From Dehalococcoidia bacterium (GTDB lineage Bacteria > Chloroflexota > Dehalococcoidia > GIF9 > AB-539-J10), in NCBI GenBank assembly GCA_034431195.1, contig DAOUDP010000001.1, positions 179,385-243,384 on the forward strand: DNA of 64,000 nucleotides. Reading direction: 5' to 3'. The notes under the pieces are model-generated. The model had not been told where the DNA came from. It made no database searches and was given only the letters and a program-made list of their open reading frames with translations. The translations under genes and the position numbers were made by a program. This document shows positions 984 to 58,698 of this stretch, in pieces. Every line of letters begins with the position of its first letter. The stretch's first letter is position 1.

Positions 984-1892
984 ATGTCTGTTATATTACA
1001 AACCAATTTACCCTTTCCTTTAGCTCGGCGTGGCAAAGTGCGGGATGTCTATGATTTAGGAGACAAGCTTCTCATCGTATCCACTGACCGCATCTCTGCC
1101 TTCGACTATGTCCTCCCCTGCGGTGTTCCTGAAAAGGGAAGGATTCTCAACCAGCTCTCCGCCTTCTGGTTTAAAAAAACAGGCCATATTATTCCCAATC
1201 ACCTTATTACAGCAATTGATAGCCTCGATACCATTCAGGATGTTATTCAACAGCTGACAGCTGACAGCTATCAGCTGAAAGCTTTAAACTGCCTCATTGG
1301 TCGCTCCATGCTTGTAGCCAAAGCTCACCGTATCCCGGCGGAATGCATTGTTCGAGGCTACCTTTGTGGTTCAGCCTGGGTAGAATATAAACAAAGTGGA
1401 AGAGTTGGCAACATTCGATTGCCATCTGGAATTCAGGAAAATGAGGAACTTCCCCAGCCCATCTTCACCCCCACCACCAAAAGCGATGTGGAACATGACC
1501 GCCCGTTGACCAGGGAGGATGTAACAGAGCTTGGCATCGAGCACTTAGTAGCAGAAATGGAACGAAAGAGTTTACTCATCTATCGATTTGCTCAGGACTA
1601 CGCTAAAACCAGGGGCATCATAATCGGCGATACCAAATTTGAATTTGGTCTCATTGATGGTAAGCTATCGCTTATCGACGAGTTATTAACCCCGGACTCA
1701 AGCCGTTTCTGGGATGCCAGTCAATACAAAGTCGGGCAATTTCAGCACAGCCTGGATAAACAGCCTGTGCGTGATTGGCTGCTTGCCTCAGGGTGGGATA
1801 AGGAATCCCCACCACCCACGCTGCCCCTGGAGGTAATCCAGGCCACCACAGAGCGCTACAATAAAATCTATAACCTGTTTACTAGCCATTAA
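984..1892 (+). CDS. purC: phosphoribosylaminoimidazole-succinocarboxamide synthase (SAICAR synthetase), long form
   Basis: GKVRDVYD...LLIVSTDRISAFD motif typical of PurC; 302 aa. Confidence 0.88.
   Translation: MSVILQTNLPFPLARRGKVRDVYDLGDKLLIVSTDRISAFDYVLPCGVPEKGRILNQLSAFWFKKTGHIIPNHLITAIDSLDTIQDVIQQLTADSYQLKALNCLIGRSMLVAKAHRIPAECIVRGYLCGSAWVEYKQSGRVGNIRLPSGIQENEELPQPIFTPTTKSDVEHDRPLTREDVTELGIEHLVAEMERKSLLIYRFAQDYAKTRGIIIGDTKFEFGLIDGKLSLIDELLTPDSSRFWDASQYKVGQFQHSLDKQPVRDWLLASGWDKESPPPTLPLEVIQATTERYNKIYNLFTSH
1254..1285. repeat. 32-bp in-frame insertion-like element CTGACAGCTGACAGCTATCAGCTGAAAGCTTT (copy inside purC)
   Basis: Identical 32-mer at 57080-57111 (reverse complement, inside ileS); related variant at 46926-46955 (inside nnr). 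Confidence 0.85.
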
Positions 1893-2477: not shown

Positions 2478-2555
2478 GCGTCCCTGTAGCTCAATTGGAT
2501 AGAGCGGCTGCCTTCTAAGCAGCGGGTTGTGGGTTCGAGTCCCGCCAGGGACGCC
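2478..2555 (+). tRNA. tRNA-Arg (anticodon TCT)
   Basis: Cloverleaf with acceptor stem GCGTCCC/GGGACGC, D-arm TAGCTCAATTGGATAGAGC, anticodon loop CTTCTAA, T-arm GGGTTCGAGTCCC. Confidence 0.85.
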
Positions 2556-4075: not shown

Positions 4076-4265
4076 ACCAAATGGAGATTGCTTCGGCCTC
4101 TGTGCTTCGCAATGACATAACAGCACTAAAGTGATATTGCCAAGCGTAGTGCAAGGCAGTATAAGTAGCGTAGGGTATTGTAACCCCATAAGATATTTGA
4201 TAGATTTATTACATAGTTATTAATGTAGTAATATAGAGAATTAAGTAAGTAGAGGGGAAAGAATA

Positions 4266-15547: not shown

Positions 15548-15593
15548 TCTTAAACCTCCATTAATATTCTATTTATCAGAATAACGAGGGTGA

Positions 15594-15663
15594 GATTGCT
15601 TCGCTTCGCTCGCAATGACAGCAGGGGGCTCGCAATGACAGCAGGGAGCTCACAATGACGAAG
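15594..15663. repeat. tandem copies of the dispersed GATTGCTTCGCT..CGCAATGACA repeat family (hisC-hisB intergenic)
   Basis: GATTGCTTCGCTTCGCTCGCAATGACAGCAGGGGGCTCGCAATGACAGCAGGGAGCTCACAATGACG; related copies at 4086-4118, 16772-16794 and 32340-32387. Confidence 0.7.
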
Positions 15664-16755: not shown

Positions 16756-18048
16756 CTATCTTTTGAGATTACTTCGCTTTGCTCGCAATGACACTGCCTG
16801 GGCGTGAGCATTAAACCCTTCAGCCTCAGCTATGGTTATCGCTGGTTGAGAAAGTTCCCTGGCGGTGGAATCATCCAGGGAAATGATATTGGTGACTTTG
16901 AGGAAATCCTCAACACCGAGGGGCGAACTGAAACGAGCGCTTCCCCCGGTAGGCAATACATGGCTGGGACCGGCAACATAATCGCCAAAAACTACTGATG
17001 AATTATCACCAACGAAAATAGAGCCGGCATTGTAGATTCTGGGAATCAAAGAAGAAGCGTCGGAGACCATAAGGGAAAGATGCTCAGGAGCATAAAGGTT
17101 GACCAATTCAACAGCCTGATCAATATCATCCACAAGGACAATCATCCCACTATCAAGGACTTCAGCGACAATAAAAGACCGCTTCAGCTTATCCAATTTG
17201 AGGGAAATTTCTTCATCAACCTTGTCAGCCAGCTCAGGGAATGTGGTAATCAAAAACACTTTTGCCAGCGGGTCATGCTCAGCCTGAGCGAGAAGCTCAG
17301 CAGCACATAGAGATGCATCGGCAGTGCTGTCAGCCACAATCACAATCTCGCTTGGTCCCTGAAGGCCATCAACGCCTACCTCGCCATAAACCACCATTTT
17401 GGCCAGCATCACAAAAATGTTGCCCGGACCGCAGATTTTATCCACCTTGGGCACTGACTCCGTGCCAAACGCTAGAGCAGCGATAGCTTGAGCACCACCA
17501 ATCTTGAAAATTCGATTTACCTGAGCGATGTTAGCCGCTACCAACGTAGCAGCAGGAATAGCTCCAGTAGGTCGGGGAGGCGAAGCCATAATGATCTGCC
17601 CAACACCAGCCACCTTAGCAGGAATGGCAGTCATCAACACCGTGGAGGGATAACAGGCAGTCCCACCAGGAGTATAGATCCCCACCTTATTCAGCGGCCG
17701 AACTTGTCTTCCCAAACATGGATCAATAGATATAACGCCAGCTTTTGGTAAGCAAGCAAGGTGGAATTCTCTTATCCTCTCAGCAGCTAACTCGAGGGCT
17801 GAGATTAACTTCTTGTCCGCGGCATCATAAGCTGCCGAAATCTCCTGCTGGCTCACCTCCAGAGAATCAAGTTGAGCATCCTCTAATTCCTTAGCGTAGC
17901 GAAAAAGAGCTTTATCACCCTTACTTCGTACCTTGCCGATAATATTTGCCACTACCTGTTGCTGCTCCAGCGCTACATCCAAGGATTTTAGTGGGTCTTT
18001 TCTATCAAGCACTTGCTTTGCTTGGTCAAAACCTTTGATTCTCTTCAC
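16756..18048 (-). CDS. hisD: histidinol dehydrogenase
   Basis: 430 aa with HisD-like sequence throughout; his-operon context. Confidence 0.9.
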   Translation of the reverse strand: MKRIKGFDQAKQVLDRKDPLKSLDVALEQQQVVANIIGKVRSKGDKALFRYAKELEDAQLDSLEVSQQEISAAYDAADKKLISALELAAERIREFHLACLPKAGVISIDPCLGRQVRPLNKVGIYTPGGTACYPSTVLMTAIPAKVAGVGQIIMASPPRPTGAIPAATLVAANIAQVNRIFKIGGAQAIAALAFGTESVPKVDKICGPGNIFVMLAKMVVYGEVGVDGLQGPSEIVIVADSTADASLCAAELLAQAEHDPLAKVFLITTFPELADKVDEEISLKLDKLKRSFIVAEVLDSGMIVLVDDIDQAVELVNLYAPEHLSLMVSDASSLIPRIYNAGSIFVGDNSSVVFGDYVAGPSHVLPTGGSARFSSPLGVEDFLKVTNIISLDDSTARELSQPAITIAEAEGFNAHAQAVSLRAKRSNLKR

Positions 18049-19472
18049 GCTAATCCTCCTCGCATCATCTGAATGAGGAAATCTATTTCTTCCTTCCTAT
18101 CAGGTGAAACAATACTTTCCTTGTTGCCAATGAGGCAAGCAGTGGATTCGCAAAGGGTATCAATAATTTTGAGATTATGCTCCGCCATGGTTCTTCCAGT
18201 TTGCGTGTTATCAATAAGCAAATCGGCATCTTCAGGCAGAAAAGCCTCGCTTGTCCCCCAGGTTAGTATTAGTTTGTATGGACTAACGTGGTGGTCACAA
18301 AGATACTTATCGCTGATATTGACATACTCCGAGGCTACCCTCAGCATGGATAATTTGCCCTTCTGCAGCAATTGTTTAACCTCTTCTATGGTTGATACTG
18401 GCATTTCCTGACTCGTCGCAGCTACGACTTTAACTTTGCCGAAGCCAAGATCCAATAATTCCACCACAGGGCTGGAGGGGAAACGGTAGACATGATCAAG
18501 TAGCCAGTCCCTGCCGGTTATCGCAAGGTCGAAATTGCCGTTGGCTACCTGGAGTGGCATATCCTGAGGCCTGATTACCTTAATATCAAGCCAATCTAGG
18601 TCAACCGAAGGATGATAATCCAGCGCCTCCACAGAATAATGGCTTAAATTGAGTCCAACTCGCTTTAAAAGCTGTGTCGTGGGTGGTAGCTGATGCCCAT
18701 CAGGCAAAGCTAGCCTGACTTTCTTCAGCTCGGGGCGGGGAAGTGACTCAATAGAACCTTCCTTTCTGCCTAATTCCTCAAATGACAAAGAAAACTCCTT
18801 ATTGTCAAGCTTGGAAGCAAAGCAATTCAACACTTCGCCCAAGTCCTTACTATTCAAATTTTTCTGGCTCGCAATTATCATAGCTTTAGTGGGGAGCAAT
18901 TTCATGAGAGGAAGCAAACCTTTCCTTTCCAACTGTCTCCTATTTCTGGCTCCCAATATCGCGATTTCAGCGTTCTCCGGGGGATAGACCTCAGCATCTC
19001 CCCAAACTGGAAAAATCCGAAACCTTCTCATCCTGACACTTAAGGCAAAAGCTTCGGCTAAATTAGGATATTCACTTACTATACGCCAGTTACGTTGCCT
19101 GGCTAGAAATTCATCGAGGTTGGATATTCCTGACTTGTAACTGACTGCGGCGTATACATATCCGCCACCATAATTTAGAGCAGATATCTTCACCACTGCG
19201 CTGGCTTTATACCGCACAAGAAGTTCTTCAATCCAATCCAGTCCACATATCCCCAAGTCATAATTGCCTATCGCCACCTGAATAGGAATATCCTTTTCCC
19301 GAAATATCTTGGCAGCGAGGTAAGGGAGGTTTCTTGACTGAAGCCGATATTGCCTTGTTCGTTCCGTATACCCTTTAAAGCCTAAACCTACATCAGCAAG
19401 TAAATTCGCCGTGGCTGGAAGCAATCTCCCTTTGGGCAAAGCAAGTTTAATATAGTTTGCCTGGTTTGCCAT
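18045..19472 (-). CDS. hisG: ATP phosphoribosyltransferase, tandem fusion of two short-form HisG catalytic domains
   Basis: 475 aa. The first half (KLALPKGRLLPATANLLADVGL...GNYDLGICGLDWIEE) and second half (RLALPDGHQLPPTTQLLKRVGL...GNFDLAITGRDWLLD) each resemble a complete short HisG. Confidence 0.8.
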   Translation of the reverse strand: MANQANYIKLALPKGRLLPATANLLADVGLGFKGYTERTRQYRLQSRNLPYLAAKIFREKDIPIQVAIGNYDLGICGLDWIEELLVRYKASAVVKISALNYGGGYVYAAVSYKSGISNLDEFLARQRNWRIVSEYPNLAEAFALSVRMRRFRIFPVWGDAEVYPPENAEIAILGARNRRQLERKGLLPLMKLLPTKAMIIASQKNLNSKDLGEVLNCFASKLDNKEFSLSFEELGRKEGSIESLPRPELKKVRLALPDGHQLPPTTQLLKRVGLNLSHYSVEALDYHPSVDLDWLDIKVIRPQDMPLQVANGNFDLAITGRDWLLDHVYRFPSSPVVELLDLGFGKVKVVAATSQEMPVSTIEEVKQLLQKGKLSMLRVASEYVNISDKYLCDHHVSPYKLILTWGTSEAFLPEDADLLIDNTQTGRTMAEHNLKIIDTLCESTACLIGNKESIVSPDRKEEIDFLIQMMRGGLA

Positions 19473-30179: not shown

Positions 30180-32816
30180 ATGTTGGGCTGGTTTACCAAA
30201 TTAATCGATTCTAACGAAAAAGAGCTGAAGCGACTTCAACCTTTGGTATCCCATATAAACTCGCTTGAGCCCGATTTTGAAAAACTCACCGACGGTGAGC
30301 TTCGCGACAAAACAGATGAGTTCAGGACCAGACTAAAGGATGACGAGGATTTAGATGACCTCTCATCTGAAGCTTATGCTGCAGTGAGAGAGGCTGCCAA
30401 ACGAACGATAAAGCAAAGACATTTCGATGTTCAATTAATGGGTGGAGTTGTCCTTCACCAAGGCAAAATAGCTGAAATGGCAACTGGAGAGGGAAAAACG
30501 CTGGTGGCTACATTGCCGCTTTACCTCAACGCCCTTACCGGGGAAGGATGTCACTTAGTAACCGTCAACGATTATCTCGCGAAGCGTGATTGTAACTGGA
30601 TGGGGCCTATCTACCATGCCCTCGGAGTAAGCGTGGCATGCATCAATGCCATGCAATCTCCAGACCAACCTTCACCTTCTTTCCTTTATGACCCCGATTT
30701 TGACTCCGGAGACCCGAAATGGAGGCAGCTTCGCCCCATCACCCGCCGCGAGGCTTATGAAGCAGATATAACCTATGGCACAAATAACGAGTTTGGCTTT
30801 GATTACCTCAGAGACAATATGGTCCTGGACTTATCCCAGTGCGTCCAGCGGGAGCTTAACTATGCCATCGTAGATGAAGTTGACAGCATCCTCATCGACG
30901 AAGCCCGCACACCACTGATTATAAGCGGAGCTGCTGAAGAAGCCACCCAGAAATACTACACCTTCGCTCGGCTCGTTTCTCGCCTCAAAAAAGATGACGA
31001 TTACACCGTTGACGAAAAGACACGAACATGCTCACTCACGGAAATCGGCATCGGCAAGATGGAGAAGATGCTCAAGAGCGCCGGATTGCTTAAGGCTCCC
31101 AGCTTTTACGACCCCTCCAACTACTCACTCACCCGATATCTGGAGAATGCCCTCAAGGCTCATGCTCTGTTCAGAAGGGACAAAGACTACATGGTTAAGG
31201 ATGGGCAAGTTATCATCGTTGATGAATTTACCGGAAGGTTGATGTTTGGCAGAAGGTATTCTGAGGGCTTACACCAGGCTATCGAAGCCAGGGAAGGTGT
31301 AAAGGTACAGCGGGAAAGCATCACTTTAGCCACCATCACCTTCCAGAACTATTTCCGCCTGTACCAGAAATTAGCGGGGATGACTGGCACCGCCGCCACC
31401 GAGGCTGAAGAGTTTCACAAGATTTATAAATTGGAGGTGGTGGTTATACCCACCAACAAACCCCTGGTCCGCACTGAACATACTGACCAGGTTTACAAAG
31501 ATGAGAAGGCCAAGTTTGAAGCTGTCGCCAGAGAAATTGAGCATTGGCATAAGCAAAAAAGACCGGTGCTCATTGGCACAACCTCCATTGAGAAATCGGA
31601 GACGTTAAGCAACTTATTAACCAGGAAAGGCGTACCTCACCAGGTGCTGAATGCCAAGCATCATGAGAAGGAGGCAGCCATTGTTGCTCAGGCTGGTTGT
31701 TTAGAAGCAGTAACTGTAGCTACAAATATGGCTGGACGCGGTGTGGACATCATTCTTGGAGGCAATCCTGAAAAACGTGATAGCAAGGGATGGCTTGAGG
31801 AGCATAACAAGGTGGTTGAACTTGGCGGCCTCCATATTGTAGGCACTGAGCATCATGAAGCCAGACGCATTGATAACCAGCTCCGCGGCAGAGCAGGGAG
31901 ACAGGGAGACCACGGCAGTTCCCGCTTCTTTGCCTCTTTAGAGGACGAAGTTGTCCACCGCTTCGGCGGCGACCGCATCGGAGGACTTATGCAATGGGCT
32001 GGCCTGGGAGAGGATAAGCCTCTCGAGCATCCTATGGTCAGCAAGGCGATGACAAATGCCCAAGTGCAGAGCGAGGGATATAACTTCGATATTCGCAAAC
32101 ACCTTGTTGAGTATGATGATGTAGTCAATCAGCATCGCGAGGTAATTTATGACGAAAGGAAGAAAATACTGAGCGGTGCCGACCTTAAGGCAAATATAAT
32201 GTCTATGATTACAGATGAAATTCAAACCGTGGTGGACGCTCATATCAACCACAATTTAAGTGAGCCCGATTTATCAGGATTGCGTGAAGACATTTCCGCC
32301 ATTTTCCCCTCACCACCTGACATTGCCAGCCTTTCTTCTGTCATTGCAAGCCGAAGCCCTGAGCGAAGCGAAGGGGCAGCGAAGCAACCCGAGTTTGACA
32401 GCAAGGAAATTGCCGACAAGCTAACCAATTACGCCATTGATCTTTACGAGCAGAAGGAGCAGGAAATAGGTGCCGAAAACATGCGCCTTATCGAGCGTAT
32501 GGTAATGCTTCGCGTTATTGACCGCTTATGGATGGAGCATCTTACCACCATGGAGGACATGCGGCAGGGAATAGGCTTGCGAGCTGTGGGACAGCAAAAC
32601 CCGCTGGTAGTGTACAAAAGGGAAGGAGGCATTCTTTTTGATGGTCTTCTGGCTAGCATCCAGCATGATGTCGTCCGCAGCATCTATCGGGTCAGCCTGG
32701 TTAAAAAAGAGCCGCCACTCAAAAAACAGGCTGTAATAGCCGGTAAGAAAGTGGGCCGCAACGACCCCTGCCCCTGCGGGTCAGGCAAGAAATATAAACA
32801 CTGCTGCGGAAGGTAG
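30180..32816 (+). CDS. secA: preprotein translocase ATPase SecA
   Basis: 878 aa with DEAD-like motor motifs and a C-terminal zinc-binding [14 protein letters not shown]. Confidence 0.95.
32785..32813 (+). repeat. direct repeat copy A (the native secA 3' end); attL-like
   Basis: GCAAGAAATATAAACACTGCTGCGGAAGG recurs at 34410-34438 with a single mismatch. Confidence 0.8.
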
Positions 32817-32824
32817 GATTAGGT

Positions 32825-33802
32825 ATGGGGAATCATGTACTACTTGTAAGTAGAGAGCATTTTAATAAGTGTCTTAAGTATGGAATATATGGTGCTCCCT
32901 CTCACCCACTTGAGAGAATTAATTCGGAAATTATAGCTGGTTCTGAAGCTATTAAAGCAGGAGACTTCATATTCTTCTATGTTAAAAACATTGGAGTATA
33001 TGGTTTGTGGAGAGCAACAAGTCGTCCGTTCTTTGACGAGACTGATATTTGGGGTGAAAAAGACCAGAAGTATCCTTATAGGATCTGCTTCGCACCCTCA
33101 ATTAGGTATTTCTCAAAGCCAATTGCCCTTAGTGATGTTTTAGATTTGCGAGATAGGGGAAAGATATGGACATTTGATTTAGGAGCTATCCGCGCAAAGA
33201 ATCACAATCCGCTAACCACTGATGAAAGCAAAGACTTAATACGCCTTTTCCTAAGGAATAATCCTATTTTTCATTCAGTTGCATCCATACCAGAACCGTA
33301 CCCAGCAGGTAATATCACACTGCCATTAAGCCTAGAATCAGATAGTAGGGGACGTATAAGATATGAGGGCTTCTTAAATGCTTGGTTTATGAGGAGTTTT
33401 GTTGATGGTAGATTCAAGGAAATCATTGGCGAATATAGAGATTTTCTAAACTTTGTCCCTACCTCTTTTAATAAAGTAATGGATATTTTTCTTACGCATG
33501 TCACCTCAGTTGACGGTGTTGATATCCTTCATAAATTTACTTGCATCGAGCTAAAAACAGGAATATGCACTGAAGAAGATTTGAATCAGATCATTAAATA
33601 CGAAAATTGGCTCGTAAGGAAGCTAGCTAATGGTGATAGTGAAATGGTCCAAAGCGTCCTCGTTGCATTCGATTTTCAAGACAAAGTATTGGAATATGTG
33701 CAGAAGAGAAGAACGATAGAGGAAAAGACAGTCAGGTTGCTAAAATATCGAGTGACTAAAGAACAAAACGATATTATATTAACTGAAATTGAATTCGGAT
33801 AG
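32825..33802 (+). CDS. EVE (PUA-like) domain fused to a PD-(D/E)xK nuclease; candidate modification-dependent (type IV) restriction endonuclease
   Basis: N-terminal AGSEAIKAGDFIFFYVKNIGVYGLWRATSRPFFD resembles the EVE/PUA-like GD-x-hFFYHS...G core; C-terminal VDGVDILHKFTCIELKTG fits a D...E-x-K motif; low GC. Confidence 0.55.
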   Translation: MGNHVLLVSREHFNKCLKYGIYGAPSHPLERINSEIIAGSEAIKAGDFIFFYVKNIGVYGLWRATSRPFFDETDIWGEKDQKYPYRICFAPSIRYFSKPIALSDVLDLRDRGKIWTFDLGAIRAKNHNPLTTDESKDLIRLFLRNNPIFHSVASIPEPYPAGNITLPLSLESDSRGRIRYEGFLNAWFMRSFVDGRFKEIIGEYRDFLNFVPTSFNKVMDIFLTHVTSVDGVDILHKFTCIELKTGICTEEDLNQIIKYENWLVRKLANGDSEMVQSVLVAFDFQDKVLEYVQKRRTIEEKTVRLLKYRVTKEQNDIILTEIEFG

Positions 33803-34289
33803 GAGGTTTGACGCAATGTCGGATGAAGCTATCACCGGAGTTTACAACTCTGACATTTCTGATGACGCTATTCATGAGCTTGCTCCGTCTATCCTTTTGA
33901 GCGAACAGAGTTCAGAGTTCACGCTTAACCAGGGTAAATATGCCTATCGGGTTAAAGGGGGGAAGGATGGACACCTATACTATAAAAAGAGGGCTAACGA
34001 CAGTTGGATCCTTATTGCAAACTGGTGCCTTTATGGTCTTTATATTGTAATCCGTTATAGGAAACCATTATGGCTAAGGCCAATGTATCGGAGCTTGTTT
34101 AGCAAAATGAATTTTGTTTCTATCACCTTCAGCGACCATAGTATTGAAGCGATGGGCACAGATGGACAAATTTTAAGAGGTAGACGGCTCCGCCTCAGTC
34201 CTCCTTTTGCTTTTGAAGAAGTTATGATGGAGAAGTTTGGTTATTCCCTACAGAAGGCGGAAGTGCTTCGATCGAAATTGGATTTGTGA
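33789..34289 (+). CDS. hypothetical protein; start possibly at 33816. Its 3' end overlaps a frameshifted remnant of the small gene at 36631-36843
   Basis: ORF only; the C-terminal AEVLRSKLDL resembles the N-terminus DVVEEFLDCEL of the 36631 gene. Confidence 0.3.
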   Translation: MNSDRRFDAMSDEAITGVYNSDISDDAIHELAPSILLSEQSSEFTLNQGKYAYRVKGGKDGHLYYKKRANDSWILIANWCLYGLYIVIRYRKPLWLRPMYRSLFSKMNFVSITFSDHSIEAMGTDGQILRGRRLRLSPPFAFEEVMMEKFGYSLQKAEVLRSKLDL

Positions 34290-34320
34290 TTTAATTGTTG
34301 AAGTGAAACCCTCCAAAGAT

Positions 34321-34389
34321 TTTTGCCAGTATGTTGAGGACGATTATTACGAGTGGCTGAAGGATAACTTCAAGTCCTTCTTCGACCAT
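34321..34389 (+). repeat. direct repeat copy B (small-gene fragment); B' at 36727-36793
   Basis: About 69 bp of similarity, mostly synonymous differences. Confidence 0.75.
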
Positions 34390-34409
34390 GGAAATCTAGA
34401 CCGGGAGCA

Positions 34410-34438
34410 GCAAGAAATACAAACACTGCTGCGGAAGG
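34410..34438 (+). repeat. direct repeat copy A' of the secA 3' end
   Basis: GCAAGAAATACAAACACTGCTGCGGAAGG versus the secA end; 28 of 29 identical. Confidence 0.8.
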
Positions 34439-34621
34439 GGAACATAATTCCGAGGGGCTAATTATAATGGAAGCTTGCTTAGGCATTACTATGTTGATAA
34501 ATGCGAAAAGTCTTTCGCTATGCTTGCCACCTTGATTGTTGGGATGGGGAGGAGATTTTAGAGGAGATAAAGGTATGAAAGGTTACAAGGGAAAAAGAAT
34601 AACTTATGGAGGTGCAATAAA

Positions 34622-35629
34622 ATGGAACGAGATTCAAACTTTCAGATGCTGTCTTGGTTTACAGATCAACATAGAATGGGAAATCTCGATTTAGAGCCTC
34701 CGTATCAAAGAAAAAGTATTTGGAATAATGACTACAAAGTTTATTTCATTGATACGATTCTTCGGAACTTCCCTTGTCCAACCATATTTCTAGCAGTTGA
34801 GCTTAGTTCAAGTGGACTTACTAAATACCATGTTGTGGATGGTAAGCAAAGACTTTTAACGGTTTTCGAATTTGTAAACGATGAGTTCACTACATCAGAG
34901 ATATACAGTGACCCTGATTACGCCGACAAGTATTTTTCACAATTGCCAGCCAAGGTAAAGACTCGTTTCTGGGGATACAAGTTTACAATAGAATATCTTA
35001 AAACCGAAAGTAGAAAAGACTTAAATGATTCTTTTGACAGGTTGAATAGGAATGTTGCTCGGTTAAATAAACAAGAACTGCGACATGCGCGACACGCTGG
35101 AGCATTCATCACCTACGTAACCCAGTTATCAGACGATCCATTTTGGAAAGATATGGGGATATCTACTCCCTCAAGAATAAGAAGAATGCTAGATATTGAA
35201 TATGTTTCGGAGATATTTTTAGTGGTTATGCACGGAATCAAAGACGGTAGAGACCATTTAGACGAATATTTTGCAGTGTACGATGATGAAATTCCAGACT
35301 TAGAAGAAAACAGAAAAAAATATGAAGTATGTAAGGATCTCATTGCAAAGCTAGATGTATACAAAACACGGTATAGCAACCTTGCAGACCTCTATTCTTT
35401 ATGGTCTGGGATGTCTGAATTATATGACGAGAATGGTGGTAGTTTAGAGATAGCCGTTGAAAGAACAAGAACAAAACTATTACAGTTTGCAGATAGAATC
35501 CGAGGTGACGTAGATGAACAACGAGTTCAAGCCTATGCATTGGCAGTGTTGCAGGCGTCTAATAGTATTAAAAGTAGACAGACTCGTGAGAATATATTGA
35601 AGGGACTTATTGTTGTAAAAAGAAAATGA
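34622..35629 (+). CDS. DUF262 (GmrS/ParB-like NTPase domain) protein
   Basis: EPPYQRKSIWNN...FIDTILRNFPCPTIFL...HVVDGKQRLLTVFEF, the DGQQR-type motif of DUF262; a second block FDRLNRNVARLNKQELRHA; low GC; 4-nt overlap with the downstream gene. Confidence 0.8.
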   Translation: MERDSNFQMLSWFTDQHRMGNLDLEPPYQRKSIWNNDYKVYFIDTILRNFPCPTIFLAVELSSSGLTKYHVVDGKQRLLTVFEFVNDEFTTSEIYSDPDYADKYFSQLPAKVKTRFWGYKFTIEYLKTESRKDLNDSFDRLNRNVARLNKQELRHARHAGAFITYVTQLSDDPFWKDMGISTPSRIRRMLDIEYVSEIFLVVMHGIKDGRDHLDEYFAVYDDEIPDLEENRKKYEVCKDLIAKLDVYKTRYSNLADLYSLWSGMSELYDENGGSLEIAVERTRTKLLQFADRIRGDVDEQRVQAYALAVLQASNSIKSRQTRENILKGLIVVKRK

Positions 35630-36585
35630 TAATTCCCAGATCCATTGAAGCTTTCTACGGCAAAGTAGCAGAGTCTTTATATGTTCTTAAGTACAACATT
35701 GACCAACCACTTAAGAATATAGCTGATTCATTAAATATCAGGTATGTCCACGCGAGGATAAAGCCAAAAGAGAGCTTGATGGCCAAAATAGAGAAAGAAG
35801 GGTGTAAGAATCCAGCCGATGAAATTGAGGATCTAGTCGCTTGTAGATTAATCGTGAATAACATATCTGAGATAGGTTATGTAAAAGAGAAGATAAAACA
35901 ACTATTCAATATAGAGGATGAAAAATCTAAAAGATCTCGCTCACCAAATGAATTTTTGTACGATGCCATTCATTTAATATTAAGTTTTAAAGACAGTCCC
36001 TTTATAAGTAATAAGGACATCTTAGGGAAGAAATTTGAATTGCAAATTAAAACCAGCCTACAAAATGCATTAGATGAAGTAACACGCGGCGAAATTTATA
36101 AAACAGATATATTAACCTGGGAAAAAGATAGGACTGCAAGCGAGTTAAGAGCAAATCTTGAATTACTAGATACATTGTTAAAGGATTTCCCGAAGATAGT
36201 TGCTATTCAAGAGGAGAGAGAATATGAACTATATCAAAATAGGAACAAGATAATAGCTTTACTTAAAGATGTTTGGAGCGCTGAAAAATTACCTGACGAT
36301 TTACGGAGGGCAAGCATTGTTATTGAGGAGTACCTGAAACTGGCTGAGGCAAAGGTAGAAGATTTATCTAGTTGGCTAAATCTTGACAGGTACAGAAATG
36401 CTGTTAAGGCTGTCTCAATTACTCCGTGTCAAATAATATTGATTATCTTGTTCCTAGAAAAAGGGGCTTTCCTTAACAACGTAAGAAGACAAAATAGATG
36501 TTTGCTCATAACCGATGAGATGATAGATATATGTCCCGAACTTAAGGAAATAGACCTATCATATCGCGTGAACATCGATTACTAG
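35626..36585 (+). CDS. RelA/SpoT-homolog (RSH) synthetase-domain nucleotidyltransferase (small-alarmone-synthetase/toxSAS-like)
   Basis: Syn motifs: RYVHARIKPKESLMAKIEKEG (basic ATP-binding motif), IEDLVACRLIV (D-x-x-G/A-x-R-h-h), YDAIHLILSF, FELQIKTSLQNALDEVTRGEIYK (E-h-Q-I-R/K-T...YK). Confidence 0.75.
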   Translation: MIIPRSIEAFYGKVAESLYVLKYNIDQPLKNIADSLNIRYVHARIKPKESLMAKIEKEGCKNPADEIEDLVACRLIVNNISEIGYVKEKIKQLFNIEDEKSKRSRSPNEFLYDAIHLILSFKDSPFISNKDILGKKFELQIKTSLQNALDEVTRGEIYKTDILTWEKDRTASELRANLELLDTLLKDFPKIVAIQEEREYELYQNRNKIIALLKDVWSAEKLPDDLRRASIVIEEYLKLAEAKVEDLSSWLNLDRYRNAVKAVSITPCQIILIILFLEKGAFLNNVRRQNRCLLITDEMIDICPELKEIDLSYRVNIDY

Positions 36586-36630
36586 GGACTCAGCAAGGGT
36601 TAACCAAATACTTATACAAGGTAGCAAAAG

Positions 36631-36843
36631 ATGCTTGATAGAGATGTAGTTGAAGAATTCCTTGATTGTGAACTTGAGGGTATAGAAATTCCTGCGGATA
36701 TTTCCAAGGAACAGCTTGTAGAAGCTTTTTGTCAGTATGTTGAAGATGATTACTACGAATGGCTGAAGGATAACTTCAAGTCGTTCTTCGACCACTGCAA
36801 CCCAGATTGGGAGTGGATAAGGGAGAAGCTTAAGAACCAGTGA
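36631..36843 (+). CDS. small hypothetical protein (70 aa), intact copy of the duplicated small gene
   Basis: ORF with a partial diverged copy at 34237-34400; its stop overlaps the polX start. Confidence 0.45.
   Translation: MLDRDVVEEFLDCELEGIEIPADISKEQLVEAFCQYVEDDYYEWLKDNFKSFFDHCNPDWEWIREKLKNQ
36727..36793 (+). repeat. direct repeat copy B'
   Basis: Matches 34321-34389. Confidence 0.75.
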
Positions 36844-38564
36844 GAAACACCGCTATCGCCAAAGTATTCAGCGATATAGCAGACCTCCTCGAGCTCAAAG
36901 GTGAGAACCAGTTCAAGATTCGTGCTTACCAGAAGGCAGTTCGCGCTATTGAGCACTATCCCAAGGAAATAAGAATTATGATTGACGAAGGGGAGGACTT
37001 GAAGAGTATCCCCGGGGTAGGAGACGCAATAGCCAAAAAAACAACCGAACTGGTGAAGACGGGAAAACTGGAATACTACGAGAAACTTAAAGCCGAGTTT
37101 CCCGAAGGGATAACTAATCTCCTCGATATACCGGGGATTGGCCCAAAGACAGCTAACAAACTCTGCTCCGAACTGGGGATAACTTCAGCAGATAGCCTGG
37201 AGCAAGCGATAAAGGATGGCAGCGTGGCCACGCTGTTTCGTCTTGGTGAAAAGACCGCCAATAATATCCTCCAGCAAGTCGAGGCCTCCCGCCGCAAGGA
37301 CCAACGCATCTCTATCGGGGAGGCTTTGCCTATCGTCGAAGAAATACTCAGTGCTCTCAACTCTGTCCCCGGGGTGAGAAATCTAACTTACGCTGGAAGT
37401 CTGCGCCGCTTCCGAGAAACATTGGGCGACATTGACCTTATGGGCACCGTCGATAACCCCCAGAAAGTTATGGACGCTTTTGTCTCGTTACCTATTGTAG
37501 GGCAGGTTTTAGTCCAGGGACCCACTAAATCAAGCGCCATAGTCTCCGGTGGTTTGCAAGTCGACTTAAGACTGGTAGAACACGAGGCTTTTGGGTCACT
37601 GCTTCAATATTTCACCGGAAGTAAACAACATAATATTTCTTTAAGGGAAAGAGGGCGAAGGCAAGGATTAAAATTGAGCGAATATGGCATCACCGATATT
37701 GCCACAGATAAGCTGGAGAAATTTGCTGATGAAGAGAATTTTTATCACCGACTGGGGATGCAGTATATTCCCCCCGAGCTTAGAGAAGATCAAGGCGAGG
37801 TGGAAAAGGCTGAACGGGGAGCCATCCCCAGGCTTGTAGAGGTGTCCGATATAAAGGGAGACCTCCATATGCACACCGATTGGAGTGATGGGCATAGCTC
37901 CATCAAGGAAATGGCTCTAGCGGCTAAAAAATTAGGGTATCAGTATATTGCCATCACCGAGCATTCCGGTGGGCGCGGCATCGCCCACGGGCTTGATGTT
38001 GAACGGCTAAGGAAACAGATTGAGGAAATCAAAAAGGTCAATGAATACATAGATGGCATTCAAGTGTTCAGTGGCATCGAGGTTGATATCCGAGCAGATG
38101 GGACTCTGGATTTACCCCACGAAATTTTGGCAAAGTTGGATGTAGTTATCGCTGCGGTGCATTCAGCGATGAACCAAAGCGAGGGAAAAATGACCCAGAG
38201 AGTACTAAGCGCTGTGGAGGACCCCGATGTCGACATTATTGCCCATCCTACCTGTCGTCTTCTGGGCGAGCGTGAACCTATAGCCCTTGACCTGGAAGCG
38301 GTTTTTCGCACCGCTGTCAAGAACAACAAAATCATGGAGATAAATGCCATGCCCGACAGACTTGACTTGAATGATATTCATGCCTCCAGGGCTAGAGAAC
38401 TAGGTGTGAAGCTTGCTATCGAGACCGATGCCCATGCTGTCTCCCACCTTGATTTTATGAGGTTTGGAGTCGGCATGGCGCGGCGAGCCTGGTGTGAGCC
38501 TCAACATATAGTAAATACTCTGCCCCTGGCAGACGTGCTCACCTTCCTGAATGTGAGCAGATAA
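36840..38564 (+). CDS. polX: DNA polymerase X family protein with a C-terminal PHP phosphoesterase domain
   Basis: N-terminal NxxIAxxFxxIAxLLExxGENxFKIRAY helix-hairpin-helix region; PolX palm; C-terminal PHP (DLHMHTDWSDG...). Confidence 0.9.
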   Translation: MRNTAIAKVFSDIADLLELKGENQFKIRAYQKAVRAIEHYPKEIRIMIDEGEDLKSIPGVGDAIAKKTTELVKTGKLEYYEKLKAEFPEGITNLLDIPGIGPKTANKLCSELGITSADSLEQAIKDGSVATLFRLGEKTANNILQQVEASRRKDQRISIGEALPIVEEILSALNSVPGVRNLTYAGSLRRFRETLGDIDLMGTVDNPQKVMDAFVSLPIVGQVLVQGPTKSSAIVSGGLQVDLRLVEHEAFGSLLQYFTGSKQHNISLRERGRRQGLKLSEYGITDIATDKLEKFADEENFYHRLGMQYIPPELREDQGEVEKAERGAIPRLVEVSDIKGDLHMHTDWSDGHSSIKEMALAAKKLGYQYIAITEHSGGRGIAHGLDVERLRKQIEEIKKVNEYIDGIQVFSGIEVDIRADGTLDLPHEILAKLDVVIAAVHSAMNQSEGKMTQRVLSAVEDPDVDIIAHPTCRLLGEREPIALDLEAVFRTAVKNNKIMEINAMPDRLDLNDIHASRARELGVKLAIETDAHAVSHLDFMRFGVGMARRAWCEPQHIVNTLPLADVLTFLNVSR

Positions 38565-46441: not shown

Positions 46442-48004
46442 CTAACCTTCTCTCAATGCCTTGATTACCCTGGGCAAAACAGGTAGCAAATCAGTGGCAA
46501 TTACCCCGGCATCACCCAGCTCCTCGGCGACAATGTCACCCGCTCGAGAATGAAGATACACCCCACAGGCAGCAGCATCGAAAAGAGAAAGCCGTTGCGC
46601 CGCTAATCCAGCTATTGCGCCAGCGAGGACATCCCCCGTCCCCGCTGAAGCTAAAGCAGGATTTGCAGCATTATTCACTTTAGCTTCCCCATTTGGAGCA
46701 GCCACAACCGTGTTAGCTCCTTTAAGCACAACGGTTTTCCCCCATTCCTTTGCTGAGCGTTGCGTTATTGATAACCTACTTTCCTGAACTTCTTTTGCCG
46801 AAATTCCCAACAATCTCGCCATCTCCCCAGGATGCGGCGTAAGGATAGCATCCCGCCTTAACTTTCGCCACCACTGAGGCATTTGAGCCAAGGTATTAAC
46901 AGCATCGGCATCCAGAATTAGACAGTTGACAGCTGACAGCTGACAGCTATCAGTTAGCAAAGACTTGACGAATTCTACCGTCTCAGGATGCTGTCCCAAT
47001 CCACAGCCAAGAAGCAATACGTCGTAATTGCTAAGCTCCAATTGTAGCGTAGAGGTTGCCTGTGAACCAATCACCCCCGTCTTAGCTTCAGGCAGTGGGA
47101 TATAGGTTGTCTCGGTCAATTTAGACGCCAGGATAGGCTGGAGGCTGCTGGCGGTAGCTAGAGTTACTAATCCAGCACCCACTCTGGCGGCACCCATACA
47201 GGCAAGATAAGCAGCGCCGATGTAGTTAACCGAGCCAGCAATGACCAATACTTTCCCAAAACTACCTTTATGGGCATTCAAAGGACGCTGGGGCAAAGTT
47301 TCCCTTACCCACTGCTCGGTTATCAATTCCACATCTATATCATGAACCAAATCTCGTGGAATTCCAATGTCAGCAATAACGAGCTTGCCCACTTTCTCGG
47401 CGCCAGGAAAACTGAATAACCCAATTTTGGGATAACCGAAGGTAACAGTGATGTCAGCGTATGGACAACTCGGCTCTACTTCGCCAGTATCGGAGTTGAG
47501 CCCTGAGGGTAAATCAACAGTCACCAGGACAGGCTTTGACTTCGTTCCCTTAACCATAGAGACATTTTGCAATACTTCCTTGAATATCCCTTCAATAGGG
47601 CGGATTTTGCCAATGCCAAAAAGGGCGTCAATGATGACATCAGCCGCAGATATGGAAGCACGCAGGTCAGCGAGAGCCCTACCTTCATAAGCGGGGATAA
47701 TAGGTATCCCGCATTGCATAGCTAGTTTAAGGTTCTTATCATTCTGCGCCCTGGAAGCACAAAGGCAAATATTGACCTTAGCTCCCCAGTCATGGAGATA
47801 ACGCGCAGCTACCAAGCCGTCGCCACCGTTATTGCCAGGACCAACCAGAACCAACACCCTTTTACCAACAGCGCTATGCAATACTTGCTTAACCTGTGCA
47901 GCTACGGCGTTGCCGGCATTTTCCATGAGCATTTCCAATGAAACGCCCAAATTAACAGCTTGATTTTCAATTTGCCTCACTTGGTCAGCAGTGACGATTT
48001 TCAT
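46442..48004 (-). CDS. nnr: bifunctional NAD(P)H-hydrate epimerase / ADP-dependent dehydratase (YjeF family)
   Basis: GPGNNGGDGLVAARYL (YjeF_N) plus a C-terminal carbohydrate-kinase-like domain with GTGDVLAG. Confidence 0.85.
   Translation of the reverse strand: MKIVTADQVRQIENQAVNLGVSLEMLMENAGNAVAAQVKQVLHSAVGKRVLVLVGPGNNGGDGLVAARYLHDWGAKVNICLCASRAQNDKNLKLAMQCGIPIIPAYEGRALADLRASISAADVIIDALFGIGKIRPIEGIFKEVLQNVSMVKGTKSKPVLVTVDLPSGLNSDTGEVEPSCPYADITVTFGYPKIGLFSFPGAEKVGKLVIADIGIPRDLVHDIDVELITEQWVRETLPQRPLNAHKGSFGKVLVIAGSVNYIGAAYLACMGAARVGAGLVTLATASSLQPILASKLTETTYIPLPEAKTGVIGSQATSTLQLELSNYDVLLLGCGLGQHPETVEFVKSLLTDSCQLSAVNCLILDADAVNTLAQMPQWWRKLRRDAILTPHPGEMARLLGISAKEVQESRLSITQRSAKEWGKTVVLKGANTVVAAPNGEAKVNNAANPALASAGTGDVLAGAIAGLAAQRLSLFDAAACGVYLHSRAGDIVAEELGDAGVIATDLLPVLPRVIKALREG
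46926..46955. repeat. variant copy of the GACAGCT-repeat element inside nnr
   Basis: TTGACAGCTGACAGCTGACAGCTATCAGTT: three GACAGCT units versus two in the purC and ileS copies. Confidence 0.7.
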
Positions 48005-51354: not shown

Positions 51355-51579
51355 ATTACACCCGCCCTATCAAATATTCGGGACACTCTACCTTGAACTC
51401 CAGAGTTTGTCAATCAAGCTGTATCTGTTCATAATGTAACCAACACGTGTGACCGAAATCACGATTCCCTTGCGCATGTTATAGCTATCTTTAACTTTGT
51501 CCAGTCAACCTCTCTTGACAAAGGGTGGGCTTGCTACATAAAATATAATAGAACTGAATAAGTGAAAGGCTGCGAACAG

Positions 51580-51835
51580 GACTAGTACAGTCTGAGGCGG
51601 AGTTTAGAGAGTCGGGTAAGGTGTAAGCCGATACTTGCGCAAGACTGGAATGGACCTGGGAGCTGCAAACCGAAAGGCTACAAGGCTGAGTAGGCTTTGT
51701 CGGTAGGGCACCGTTAGAAGCCCAGGGTATCGCTCTCAAGTTGAGCTGTATCCGAGAAGAGATAGTCGTAAGACTGAAATGGGGTGGCACCGCGAAGGTT
51801 AGGCCTCTCGCCCCCTGGCGAGAGGCCTTTTTATT
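51580..51835 (+). promoter_or_regulatory. T-box riboswitch leader (Trp-specific) upstream of trpB2
   Basis: Conserved T-box sequence AAATGGGGTGGCACCGCG at 51777-51794; UGG codons in the putative specifier region (ACUGGAAUGGA); followed by an intrinsic terminator. Confidence 0.7.
51801..51835 (+). terminator. Rho-independent terminator of the T-box leader
   Basis: AGGCCTCTCGCC-CCCT-GGCGAGAGGCCT followed by TTTTATT. Confidence 0.75.
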
Positions 51836-51938: not shown

Positions 51939-53300
51939 ATGGAAAGAACAAAATTCACCCTTGATGAAACAGAAATCCCTACTCATTGGTACAACATCCA
52001 GGCTGACTTGCCCAAGCCACTGCCACCGGTTCTGCACCCAGGTACTGGAAATCCAGTCACTCCTGACGATTTAGCACCCCTATTTCCCATGGAGCTGATC
52101 AAGCAAGAGGTGAGCACTGAGCGGTGGATTGAAATACCCGAGGAGGTGCGCGATGTATACCAGCTATGGAGACCGACAACGCTATTTCGGGCGCATAGAT
52201 TGGAGAAGGCTCTGGATACGCCGGCAAAGATTTTCTACAAATATGAAGGGACAAGCCCTCCCGGCAGCCATAAGCCAAATACCGCCGTAGCCCAGGCATA
52301 TTACAACAAGCAGGAAGGGATAAAGCGCATCAGCACCGAGACTGGAGCAGGGCAGTGGGGAAGTGCCCTATCCTTTGGTGGCGCCTGCTTCGGCGTTGAG
52401 ATCAAGGTCTATATGGTGAGGATTAGCTATGATCAAAAGCCTTACCGCAGAATAATGATGGAGACCTGGGGGGCGAAATGCGTGCCCAGCCCGAGTGAGG
52501 ATACCAAGGTAGGGCGAGATATGCTGGCAAAATGGCCTGATTGTCCCGGCAGCCTGGGTCTTGCCATTAGCGAGGCTGTGGAGGATTGTGTGACCCATGA
52601 TGACACTCACTACGCCCTGGGCAGCGTGCTCAACCATGTTCTGCTGCATCAAACTGTGAACGGCCTGGAGGCGAAAAAGCTGATGGAGAAGGCAGATGCC
52701 TACCCCGACATCATCGTCGGCTGCATTGGTGGAGGCTCAAACTTCGCCGGGCTATTTTTGCCCTTTGTCAAAGATAAAATTGATGGTACAAAGCCAGACC
52801 TGCGTGTCATCAATGTAGAGCCCATGTCTGCTCCCAGCGTTACCAAGGGACTATATACCTATGACTTTGGCGATTCAGCCCAGCTCACCCCCTTGATTAA
52901 GATGTATACCCTGGGACATAGCTTCATTCCACCCCCGATTCACGCTGGTGGACTGCGCTATCACGGGATGGCACCCATAATTTGCCATCTCCATCAATTA
53001 GGGCTTGTTGAAGCCAGGGCTGAGCACCAGCTTGCCACCTTCGAAGCGGGGGTGACCTTCGCCCGCACCGAGGGCATCATCAGTGCTCCAGAGCCATGCC
53101 ATAATATTAAGGTTGCCATTGACGAAGCCTTGAAATGTCGCGAGTCAGGCGAGTTAAAAACCATCCTGATAGCCCACAGCGGACATGGACATGTTGACAT
53201 GGCTGCCTATGATGCTTACTTTTCGGGCAAGCTCCAGGATTATGAGTATCCCGAGGATAAAGTAAAGGAGGCGCTGGCTGAGCTACCAAAGGTAGGCTAA
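51939..53300 (+). CDS. trpB: tryptophan synthase beta chain-like, TrpB2 family
   Basis: PLP-lysine motif GSHKPN; 453-aa long-form TrpB2-type length; downstream of a Trp T-box. Confidence 0.8.
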
Positions 53301-58600: not shown

Positions 58601-58698
58601 TCAACACTTTTGTCAAAGATCTTGTGTTCCTTCCAATAACGGAGAATATCTTTTTCCAGTTGAGGGAAGTCTATTTTACTATTGACCTTTTTGAACAC
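55597..58698 (-). CDS. ileS: isoleucyl-tRNA synthetase (type 2, about 1033 aa)
   Basis: PPTANGSPGIHHVLS (HIGH-type) and KMSKSKNN (KMSKS) motifs; CP1 editing domain; zinc-binding cysteines. Confidence 0.95.
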   Translation of the reverse strand: MFKKVNSKIDFPQLEKDILRYWKEHKIFDKSVEVREGSRRYVFYEGPPTANGSPGIHHVLSRLFKDVVCRYKTMKGYYVPRKAGWDTHGLPVELEVENTLGFTSKAQIEEYGIAQFNQKCRGSVSKYIKEWEVMTERIGYWLDMENPYVTLDNGYIESCWWAIKQLWDKGLIYQGYKVTPHCPRCGTSLSSHEVALGYEEVDDPSVYIKFKVVPSSLPRSEALERLSNLFSSKPAYFLAWTTTPWTLPGNTALAVAPDAEYSVMEGEDNYLIMASILVGKVGLEGYREVDRVKGVDLAGVQKGLRYKPLFNPHEYGVERGRFRQYYEEASTWRMALEIQPEDKDLSFPVIDADFVSLDEGTGIVHSAPAFGEVDFKAGEDNGLDFVRDYVDLQGIIQGTYPFAGKFVKDADSLILEDLKSRGLLYRSDRIVHTYPFCWRCESPLLYYAKEAWYIKTTAVKDRLTGGNDEINWYPEYIKYGRFGDWLENNVDWAISRERYWGTPLNIWRCESCGNLDCVGSVEELKTRSKLTADSYQLKALSDLHRPYVDEITFACPGCNGVMRRVPEVIDCWFDSGAMPIAQWHYPFENREEFGQNFPADFICEAIDQTRGWFYSLHAISTLLFDRPCFKNVVCLGHIVDAQGEKMSKSKNNVVDPWMVVDNYGADVLRWHLLTAAPGESVHRFSTQMVAETMRGDLLTLWNIYSFFVLYANIDHFVPQEGEKNLSFSHLDNWIISELNRLIVDMTKASDNYDFTSAARRAGNFVDELSNWYVRRGRRRFWKSEEDADKLAAYNTLYQCLVTLSKLLAPFVPFIAEEIYRNLICSADQQAPESVHLTGFPLANEAKIDDRLDGEVRLAMKIASLGRAARAKAGIKVRQPLAKAIITLTQGSERGALEKSAADVMDEINVKELEFVKDTLLEDMPYHAVANDGKYWVAIDARLSPQLEDEGASREIVRHIQTMRRAAGFDVADHIATYYQGEEDITRVMKDFAGYIKQETLSLELTEGSPPEGAYVEKHRISNSDVLLAVSKVD
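57080..57111. repeat. 32-bp element copy inside ileS (reverse complement)
   Basis: AAAGCTTTCAGCTGATAGCTGTCAGCTGTCAG is the exact reverse complement of 1254-1285. Confidence 0.85.

Follow-up and report, generated by a model that had tools for sequence, protein, structure and literature searches.

How does the same short DNA sequence come to lie in frame inside unrelated essential genes of one genome? The question is raised by a 64,000-nt stretch of contig DAOUDP010000001.1 from a Dehalococcoidia bacterium (GCA_034431195.1; hereafter, the window). The 32-mer CTGACAGCTGACAGCTATCAGCTGAAAGCTTT occurs there in two exact copies, at 1254-1285 on the forward strand within purC and at 57080-57111 on the reverse strand within ileS, and a related array lies within nnr. 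The purC and ileS copies share sense and frame, and both encode LTADSYQLKAL. No third match to the 32-mer was found in the window at up to three mismatches, and 100 dinucleotide shuffles gave 0. We favor, with a probability of roughly 55%, the explanation that these arrays are a non-autonomous hairpin repeat made of heptamers, which would spread between dispersed arrays through templated events that copy it into loop-coding DNA or overwrite such DNA with it, change in length by 21-nt slippage, and be filtered by selection.

The purC gene (984-1892, forward strand) encodes SAICAR synthetase (7.6e-70 to yeast 1A48; PF01259 in homologs). The 32-mer specifies residues 91-101 of PurC and belongs to a full heptamer cassette of 43 nt at 1248-1290 on the forward strand, CAACAG CTGACAG CTGACAG CTATCAG CTGAAAG CTTTAAA CT, which in the DNA alignment is the part that differs from other loop alleles, between the common flanks GATGTTATT and GCCT(C/T). 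The ileS gene (55597-58698, reverse strand) encodes a type-2 isoleucyl-tRNA synthetase (2.3e-90 to 8C8U for the 221 amino acids around the element). Its five-unit array at 57077-57111 on the reverse strand, CTGACAG CTGACAG CTATCAG CTGAAAG CTTTGAG, encodes LTADSYQLKALS (IleS residues 530-541, with LTADSYQLKAL at 530-540), and its initial 32 nt (57080-57111) match the purC copy at 32 of 32 positions. The nnr gene (46442-48004, reverse strand) encodes a bifunctional NAD(P)H-hydrate repair enzyme (1.4e-84 to TM0922; PF03853 and PF01256). Its array, at 46921-46955 on the forward strand and thus antisense to the gene, reads GACAGTT GACAGCT GACAGCT GACAGCT ATCAGTT, or TTGACAG CTGACAG CTGACAG CTATCAG (46926-46953) in the CTNNNAG register, and it gives the peptide LTDSCQLSAVN from the reverse strand (approximately residues 350-362 of Nnr).

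A first-pass annotation of this DNA had reported the identity between purC and ileS, on opposite strands and in the same coding sense, and had described a variant in nnr that is read in a different frame. The identity is exact, and an array related to it does lie inside nnr; however, that array is read as the reverse complement rather than in another frame. The annotation was also correct that the three genes carry the element without disruption, as all three copies in the window are intragenic and the host open reading frames (ORFs) are uninterrupted, and that the unit contains the CAGCTG palindrome. Tandem Repeats Finder reports a period of 7 with 4-4.9 copies at the purC, ileS, and nnr sites. 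The pattern AGCT-N3-AGCT-N3-AGCT (at most one mismatch) has 10 matches in the window against 0.3 expected, all of them within the three sites, and the heptamer array is the top-ranking dispersed repeat of the window.

The arrays are arranged in the register CTNNNAG and have a total length of 32-43 nt. The full form, CTGACAG CTGACAG CTATCAG CTGAAAG CTTTCAG, is found in the ileS copy of a related metagenome-assembled genome (MAG; L060) and is the local master form, from which the ileS and purC copies of the window differ in the last unit (CTTTGAG in ileS and CTTTAAA in purC). A pure (GACAGCT)n array contains one TGA per unit, and since a 7-nt period shifts the frame at each unit, every frame meets a stop within 21 nt; its complement (AGCTGTC)n has no stop in any frame and encodes SCQLSAV. 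The CTATCAG unit, the reverse complement of CTGATAG, changes the in-frame AGC TGA CAG to AGC TAT CAG; therefore, exactly one forward frame becomes readable. Three frames in all are used by the long ORFs at the 71 other loci described below: the same forward frame (0), which gives LTADSYQ, and reverse frames 0 and 2, which give LIAVSCQ or DSCQLS. The two strands of the element differ by one base per unit, and look-alike peptides arise from both of them (DSYQLK and DSCQLS) because the unit holds the palindrome CAGCTG.

The units pair as reverse-complement partners, and CTGAAAG with CTTTCAG forms a perfect 14-nt palindrome. Pairing between CTGACAG and CTATCAG leaves a C·A mismatch on the sense strand and a G·T(U) pair on the other strand. 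The RNA hairpin predicted for the sense strand is moderate (-16 kcal/mol, z-score -2.0 to -2.5), and the one predicted for the antisense strand is better (-20.9 to -22.4 kcal/mol, z-score -3.4 to -4.0); overall, the predicted hairpins have 8-12 bp and z-scores of -2 to -4. The symmetry of the element is internal and not terminal. The covariance models of Rfam 15 gave no match at the three sites. Only two RNAs in the window reach the gathering score, a tRNA gene (2480-2553, forward strand) between purC and the next ORF and a T-box leader (51563-51818, forward strand; 102 bits) upstream of an ORF of 453 amino acids (51939-53300, forward strand).

Comparison with orthologs places the element in these proteins as a late arrival. 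The encoded peptide falls in length-variable regions of the solved structures of PurC, IleS, and Nnr. Mycobacterium PurC lacks 17 residues at this place, IleS has 5 residues more than 8C8U, and Nnr has 5 to 6 residues more than TM0922 and YxkO. The ancestral loop of IleS is KPGFSGLKEPLDLHRP, and most Dehalococcoidia orthologs show ELKGKPGFSGLKEPLDLHRP. Among the IleS orthologs examined, the element at this position (site 1, SKLTADSYQLKALSDLHRP) is carried only by the window protein, P0121, P0126, P0186, L021, and L060. Sister-lineage orthologs carry the element in a different loop approximately 200 residues downstream (site 2, FVPQPLTADSYQPKTFSELDNW), which reads YANIDRYVPQPLTADSYQPKTFSELDNW in L041 and shows graded decay in P0122, P0127, P0145, P0151, P0124, and P0156 (PLTADSDQPKAF, PLTVDRDQPRPF, and PSMTASAQPKAF). 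All site-1 carriers lack site 2, and all site-2 carriers in which the site-1 region was seen lack site 1. No ortholog with both sites was found among those examined; therefore, IleS has been hit twice, independently. The ordered five-unit variant is thereby known from at least three sites, namely purC, ileS site 1, and ileS site 2.

The Nnr array is confined, among the orthologs, to the window protein and a relative with 93% identity (LLTDSSQLLAVSC). The Nnr of P0241 perhaps contains a decayed array, and the remaining orthologs show 'ALFGLAQ-SSSPALVLDAD'. Many PurC orthologs lack the LTADSYQLKAL peptide, and many others conserve it well. A net gain of 12 nt at every site was considered at one stage and dropped, since a recount gave +9 nt in PurC and +1-2 amino acids in Nnr. 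A DNA-level repeat has reached variable loops of housekeeping proteins secondarily. The ortholog alignment proposed in the first-pass annotation therefore bears out its suspicion of a lineage-specific acquisition: the peptide is missing from ancestral-type IleS and Nnr and from many PurC proteins, it sits in two different loops of IleS in sister lineages, and the residues are not ancestral.

The PurC loop takes several unrelated forms. We compared 120 PurC homologs (P0001-P0120) between the segments 'NHLI..ID' and 'GRSMLVAKA', and a metagenome scan for PurC loci supplied at least 8 close orthologs. The loop occurs in a heptamer form (QQLTADSYQLKAL), in a form exactly 21 nt shorter (QLATL; CAGCTG[ACAGCTGACAGCTATCAGCTG]AAAGCT versus CAGCTGGCAACT), in an apparently native form (NEVKNLSSQPGELPDS), and in a short form (KNVILTLKELKGKNLDY). 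In the allele with the 21-nt difference (L075), the difference is flanked by two copies of CAGCTG, which are themselves part of the repeat. The short allele L157 has CTGACA CTGAAG at the homologous place. Two further forms come from a different, palindromic repeat family, GTCATTGCGAGG...GAAGCAATCTC, which is read VIARSEVTKQSQ... or RHCEAQSAETISI. In a neighbor-joining tree of PurC from which the loop was excluded, the loop states are interspersed, even among near-identical sequences. DNA alignment of loci L005, L076, and L156-L159 showed that the alleles are 85-93% identical outside the loop and wholly unlike inside it. Four unrelated cassettes occur among these alleles (heptamer, short, and two derived from the palindromic repeat), and the 43-nt heptamer cassette and the 166-nt long palindromic-repeat cassette occupy the same flanks, GATGTTATT and GCCTTGTAGGTCGC. 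PurC, an essential enzyme, therefore has a hypervariable loop. The mosaic could have arisen either by repeated insertion or by allelic recombination of the loop block. The position of the loop could not be read from an AlphaFold model of PurC, which reached a pLDDT of only 53.8 with a 23-sequence alignment.

The palindromic family is also dispersed in the window. Members of this second family, GAGATTGCTTCGCTTCGCTCGCAATGAC, lie at 15591-15660, 16764-16793, 4077-4094, and 19418-19435, and they include an intergenic 20-nt tandem, GCTCGCAATGACAGCAGGGR, in 2.6 copies. It is this family that supplies in-frame loop cassettes to PurC orthologs of related MAGs. A literature search with strings of this family gave nothing relevant.

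The first-pass annotation had placed the conservation at the level of DNA rather than protein, and the codons agree with this: synonymous sites in the element are kept although those elsewhere in the gene are saturated. At site 1 of IleS, the comparison covered four lineages represented by five sequences. The nucleotide identity of the gene between lineages is 0.68-0.79 (0.91 for the pair of the window and L021), with a third-position identity of 0.45-0.65. The element is identical between lineages at 32-35 of 36 positions (31-35 over all ten pairs), including 9-11 of the 12 third positions. In the 321 IleS codons shared by the four lineages, the longest nucleotide-invariant run is the element itself, with eight codons (GCT GAC AGC TAT CAG CTG AAA GCT), and the second longest is the catalytic KMSK motif, with four. 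Third positions are invariant in 27% of these codons overall and in 8 of 8 within the element (0.274^8, approximately 3e-5). A similar pattern is found in PurC between the clade of the window and that of L072, where the gene identity is 0.71 and the third-position identity 0.49, and the element is identical at 33 of 36 positions and at 10 of 12 third positions (P = 0.015); 3 of 266 other 12-codon windows of purC match this conservation. Within the L072-74 clade, many of the changes in the purC element alter the amino acid (T to I or M, L to P, K to N, and D to E); therefore, the peptide is not the protected unit. The element is conserved at the nucleotide level beyond what the encoded protein requires, strongly in some lineages and not at all in others.

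Several of the changes are swaps of whole units in the direction of better pairing. In the L156 purC allele, CTTTCAG stands for the first CTGACAG and perfects the pairing with CTGAAAG, so that CTTTCAG CTGACAG CTATCAG CTGAAAG forms a near-perfect palindrome of 28 nt. CTGACAG has been replaced by CTGATAG, the perfect partner of CTATCAG, twice independently (purC of L072 and ileS of L162). Whole-unit swaps thus improve self-complementarity. Template-switch mutagenesis at quasipalindromes (Ripley; Lovett laboratory) produces multi-nucleotide changes that perfect an imperfect palindrome. The swaps from CTGACAG to CTTTCAG in L156 and to CTGATAG in the two other alleles look like such events; quasipalindrome template switching is, however, a mutational mechanism and not an element family. 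All alleles observed stay in frame, and the sole difference in unit number is three units (21 nt). A phase-variable contingency locus of simple-sequence repeats was rejected, because the frame is kept in all alleles and the hosts are essential enzymes.

The element is not limited to this genome. When one genome of each GTDB species was scanned with the 21-mer common to all three window copies, 71 loci were found against approximately 0.3 expected, in more than 10 phyla. The carriers belong to Dehalococcoidia, other Chloroflexota, Nitrospirota, Acidobacteriota, Gemmatimonadota, Planctomycetota, Bacteroidota, Firmicutes, Alphaproteobacteria, and the candidate phyla radiation (CPR). Nearly all of them are metagenome-assembled, and long-read assemblies and one complete chromosome are included. 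Many of these carriers have the array in frame within genuine genes, among them those for HisRS (L009), PriA (L015), PGM/PMM (L024, L027, and L062), an asparagine-synthase-like (AsnB-like) protein (L036), DnaE (L042), PurL (L070), PyrK (L035), a nucleoside hydrolase (L053), HypF of Nitrospirota (L012, L014, and L034), and a CTP-transferase/DUF359 protein of the CPR (L048). Several host genes can occur in one MAG (L009, L015, and L024 in CG23 Chloroflexi; L042 and L070 in binchicken_co122_242), and both orientations relative to transcription are present.

Over 74 loci the arrays mostly contain 4-5 units, with a range of 3-16. Left units are of the CTGAnAG type (50 versus 5) and right units of the CTnTCAG type (31 versus 6; Fisher p = 2e-13); therefore, the architecture is two-armed at the family level. 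The tail CTGAAAG CTTT is confined, among these 74 arrays, to purC and ileS of the present Dehalococcoidia group, which argues that this ordered variant was copied between sites. Three arrays lie in the 64-kb window, compared with one in the 84 kb surrounding the purC genes of relatives and none in 249 kb of PurC-bearing contigs that served as unrelated controls. Longer arrays of the CTNNNAG family, with AACAG, GACAG, and ATCAG units, are present in MAGs of Gemmatimonadales and Acidobacteriota (L001, L013, L028, L031, and L063). They have 7 units in L031, 11 in L013, and 16 in L001, and in some cases a further array lies no more than 8 kb away; therefore, non-genic versions resembling the short tandemly repeated repetitive (STRR) sequences discussed below exist outside Chloroflexota. 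Two other proposals were examined and set aside. A viral vector was rejected because each scan of IMG/VR contigs gave a single match, GenBank phages gave none, and plasmids gave only weak partial matches; no full-length match to the element was found in the plasmid or phage collections. An origin-proximal, parS-like placement was rejected because the GC skew tracks gene orientation and gives no origin signal in the window.

These observations can be assembled into the following model. Templated copying between dispersed arrays would write copies into or over loop-coding DNA; candidate routes are template switching at a replication fork or hairpin, or short-tract gene conversion seeded by CAGCTG/CTGAC microhomology. 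Slippage would then lengthen or shorten the arrays, in three-unit (21-nt) steps inside genes. Selection would filter only for the frame, the absence of stops, and tolerant surface loops, and the encoded peptide would have no required function. The copying is supported by the identity of purC and ileS at 32 of 32 nucleotides, which includes the non-repeat order GAC, GAC, ATC, GAA. We infer the mechanism of copying and the lack of a host function from such patterns. The first-pass annotation had proposed an insertion-prone or selfish sequence analogous to the Rickettsia palindromic elements. The core of that proposal stands, with the amendment that the element is a degenerate heptamer array of 32-43 nt that replaces a loop segment.

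Several points weigh against the model of a copied hairpin repeat. At each site the array substitutes for a loop segment of similar length and is not a clean insertion. No target-site duplication was seen at the purC, ileS, and nnr junctions, and neither terminal inverted repeats nor an associated enzyme were seen, in a window not screened for transposases. The mechanism itself was not observed. The copy density is modest (3 per 64-kb window and 1 per 84 kb in relatives), and an identical unit sequence in more than 10 phyla is odd for a lineage-bound selfish repeat. The complementarity of locus-specific flanks is not above permutation (z = -1.2), and the idea that each locus has its own extended hairpin was dropped on this result. 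Within the L072-74 clade the purC element is identical at only 27-31 of 36 positions and its rate of change equals or exceeds that of the gene; DNA maintenance is therefore not universal. Finally, the synonymous-site conservation in IleS fits a functional cis-element equally well.

That alternative survives best among the rivals, and we consider it rather unlikely. The CTGAYAG·CTRTCAG pairs would be a putative site for a broadly conserved protein that binds DNA or RNA, or else a functional mRNA hairpin, under purifying selection at the nucleotide level, in the manner of parS or matS sites within genes. The eight invariant codons in IleS, the most nucleotide-invariant stretch across four lineages, would be expected of such a site, as would the 21-mer shared by more than 10 phyla and the recurrence of changes that improve the hairpin. 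The antisense strand, moreover, folds better via G·U pairs in 62 of 70 loci, and regulator binding has been proposed for the related TAACTGA repeats (MacGregor 2015, PMC4679880). However, close orthologs differ in whether they have the element, and purC alleles that are 90% identical show turnover of cassettes. The copies decay freely at IleS site 2 and in the L072-74 purC genes. The arrays show both orientations relative to transcription, no positional pattern, no Rfam family, and wide variation in the number and type of units.

Mobilization of the arrays by an enzyme encoded elsewhere, such as a single-strand transposase of the REP/RAYT or IS200/IS605 kind, seems distinctly improbable. A core of at least 21 nt is common to dispersed copies within one genome (three in the CG23 Chloroflexi MAG and three in the window), the structure forms hairpins, and the patchy distribution over phyla resembles that of horizontally moving systems. 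On the other side, the arrays lack defined ends, a conserved cleavage motif, and target-site duplications; no transposase was seen, though none was searched for. The array length is variable, the replaced segments are of near-equal length, and the arrays are not enriched on viral contigs, plasmids, or phages.

Independent birth in situ is less probable still, to the point of being hard to credit. Local polymerase slippage would have expanded a chance proto-repeat such as CTGACA...CTGAAG, and the likeness between loci would reflect the few unit types that are free of stops. Among the long simple-sequence repeats (SSRs) of bacteria, heptanucleotide repeats are the commonest, and polymerase slippage has been named as their source (Mrazek 2007, as cited in PMC4679880). 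The 21-nt step in L075 and the CTGACA CTGAAG sequence of the short L157 allele are what this explanation would predict. Slippage at separate loci does not account for 32 identical nucleotides in two genes of a single genome, with four unit types arranged alike in both, for the same ordered variant at IleS site 2, or for synonymous-site conservation across lineages. An ancestral or convergently selected protein motif, or an assembly, adapter, or chimera artefact, has almost no chance of being correct, because, even though many PurC orthologs conserve the peptide well and nearly all carriers are MAGs, the peptide is missing from ancestral-type orthologs, codons and not residues alone are conserved, the antisense copy yields a different peptide, the reading frames are intact, there is no vector or paper match, and the same sites recur in independent assemblies from different projects and assemblers (L005, L021, L060, L156, L162, and L163) as well as in long-read and complete-chromosome records.

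If the copied heptamer repeat is the right explanation, the phenomenon of selfish DNA inside coding genes, so far a curiosity of Rickettsia, would also occur in uncultured phyla of free-living bacteria and with an element of much smaller size, and it would be linked to the long-unexplained excess of heptanucleotides in bacteria. The arrays also provide a concrete, testable case of nucleotide-level conservation in essential genes beyond what protein function explains, given that eight IleS codons are more invariant than KMSKS, and they reveal a PurC loop that swaps four repeat-derived cassettes among alleles approximately 90% identical in DNA. In practice, such arrays create spurious peptides common to unrelated proteins, and they can mislead homology searches, quality control of MAGs, and recombination scans. 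A broader proposal, which we put forward tentatively as a possibility, is that an undescribed class of element active across phyla overwrites surface loops of essential proteins, through dedicated machinery or as a conserved recognition site for a protein or RNA. In that case, the outcome in uncultured Chloroflexota, Nitrospirota, CPR, and other bacteria would be hypervariable loop cassettes, such as the four in PurC, and a DNA motif whose conservation exceeds that of catalytic motifs.

Elsewhere in the window, a patch of low GC content (0.405) at 32000-37000 may be an acquired island. It contains paralogous small ORFs at 34237-34461 and 36631-36843, which share 92 nt at 85% identity ('FCQYVEDDYYEWLKDNFKSFFDH') and bracket the ORFs at 34622-35629 and 35626-36585, and a 29-nt repeat at 32785 and 34410.

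Literature searches with strings of the heptamer repeat returned unrelated primers only, and the element is best regarded as a CAGCTGA/TAGCTGA-type relative of the cyanobacterial STRR sequences and the TAACTGA heptamer repeats. Small dispersed repeats of Nostoc, which Elhai et al. are said to have described in Genome Res in 2008, are reportedly mobile-looking sequences of 21-27 nt inside conserved sequence, some of them hairpin-forming; they differ from the heptamer element in sequence and in host phylum. REP/REPIN sequences lie outside genes, are confined to individual species, and are associated with a RAYT gene (Bertels and Rainey 2011, PMC3116915). The element resembles them as a short (20-40 nt), imperfect, dispersed palindrome that forms a hairpin and is copied within a genome, but it is intragenic, and its core is common across phyla.

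The STRR sequences are mainly intergenic, and we know of no description of their in-frame occupation of essential genes. Their known units, CCCCAGT, TTGGTCA, and CAACAGT, differ from the CTGACAG, CTATCAG, and CTGAAAG units of the intragenic arrays described here. The likeness lies in the dispersed tandem heptamers, with at least 3 head-to-tail units (3-16 units at 74 loci). Dispersed tandem arrays of this kind are attributed to heterocystous cyanobacteria (Mazel et al. 1990, as cited in PMC4692102), and heptanucleotide repeats are the most over-represented class of long SSRs in bacteria and largely uncharacterized (PMC4692102).

The TAACTGA repeats are short 7-nt arrays, typically of 2-6 copies, in Beggiatoaceae, Cyanobacteria, and Bacteroidetes, with no known mechanism or vector (MacGregor 2015, PMC4679880). 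They have forward stops in all three frames and an open reverse strand, LSVISYQ, and lie mostly just upstream of start codons, with occasional intragenic copies that are mostly at protein ends (PMC4679880). The heptamer element shares with them the short 7-nt arrays, the closed forward strand and the open reverse one (here LSAVSCQ/LSAISYQ), and the patchy spread over many phyla. The unit, however, is not TAACTGA: read in the NNNCTGA register, the arrays consist of CAGCTGA, TAGCTGA, and AAGCTGA, of which the first two are 1-2 nt from TAACTGA. The element also differs in its CAGCTG palindrome, in the mixed unit types of a two-armed hairpin arrangement, in its position in the middle of genes for essential enzymes, and in its carriers, which include Chloroflexota, Nitrospirota, Acidobacteriota, and others.

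The Rickettsia palindromic elements are described, in the reviewed account, as sequences of approximately 150 bp in ten families found in Rickettsia only (Ogata et al. 2000, reviewed in PMC10969869). They place palindromic DNA in frame in many housekeeping genes, where the extra peptide is tolerated (PMC10969869). The heptamer element likewise stands in frame in unrelated housekeeping genes (PurC, IleS twice, Nnr, HisRS, PriA, DnaE, and PurL) and is missing from orthologs. In contrast to the 100-150 bp of that group, it has 32-43 nt in 7-nt units, an unrelated sequence, and hosts in many phyla; it behaves like a Rickettsia palindromic element and is not a member of that group. Two known kinds of sequence, the STRR/TAACTGA heptamers and in-frame selfish DNA, are thus combined in one element, and what is new are the organisms and the host genes, together with a degree of nucleotide conservation beyond the needs of the protein.

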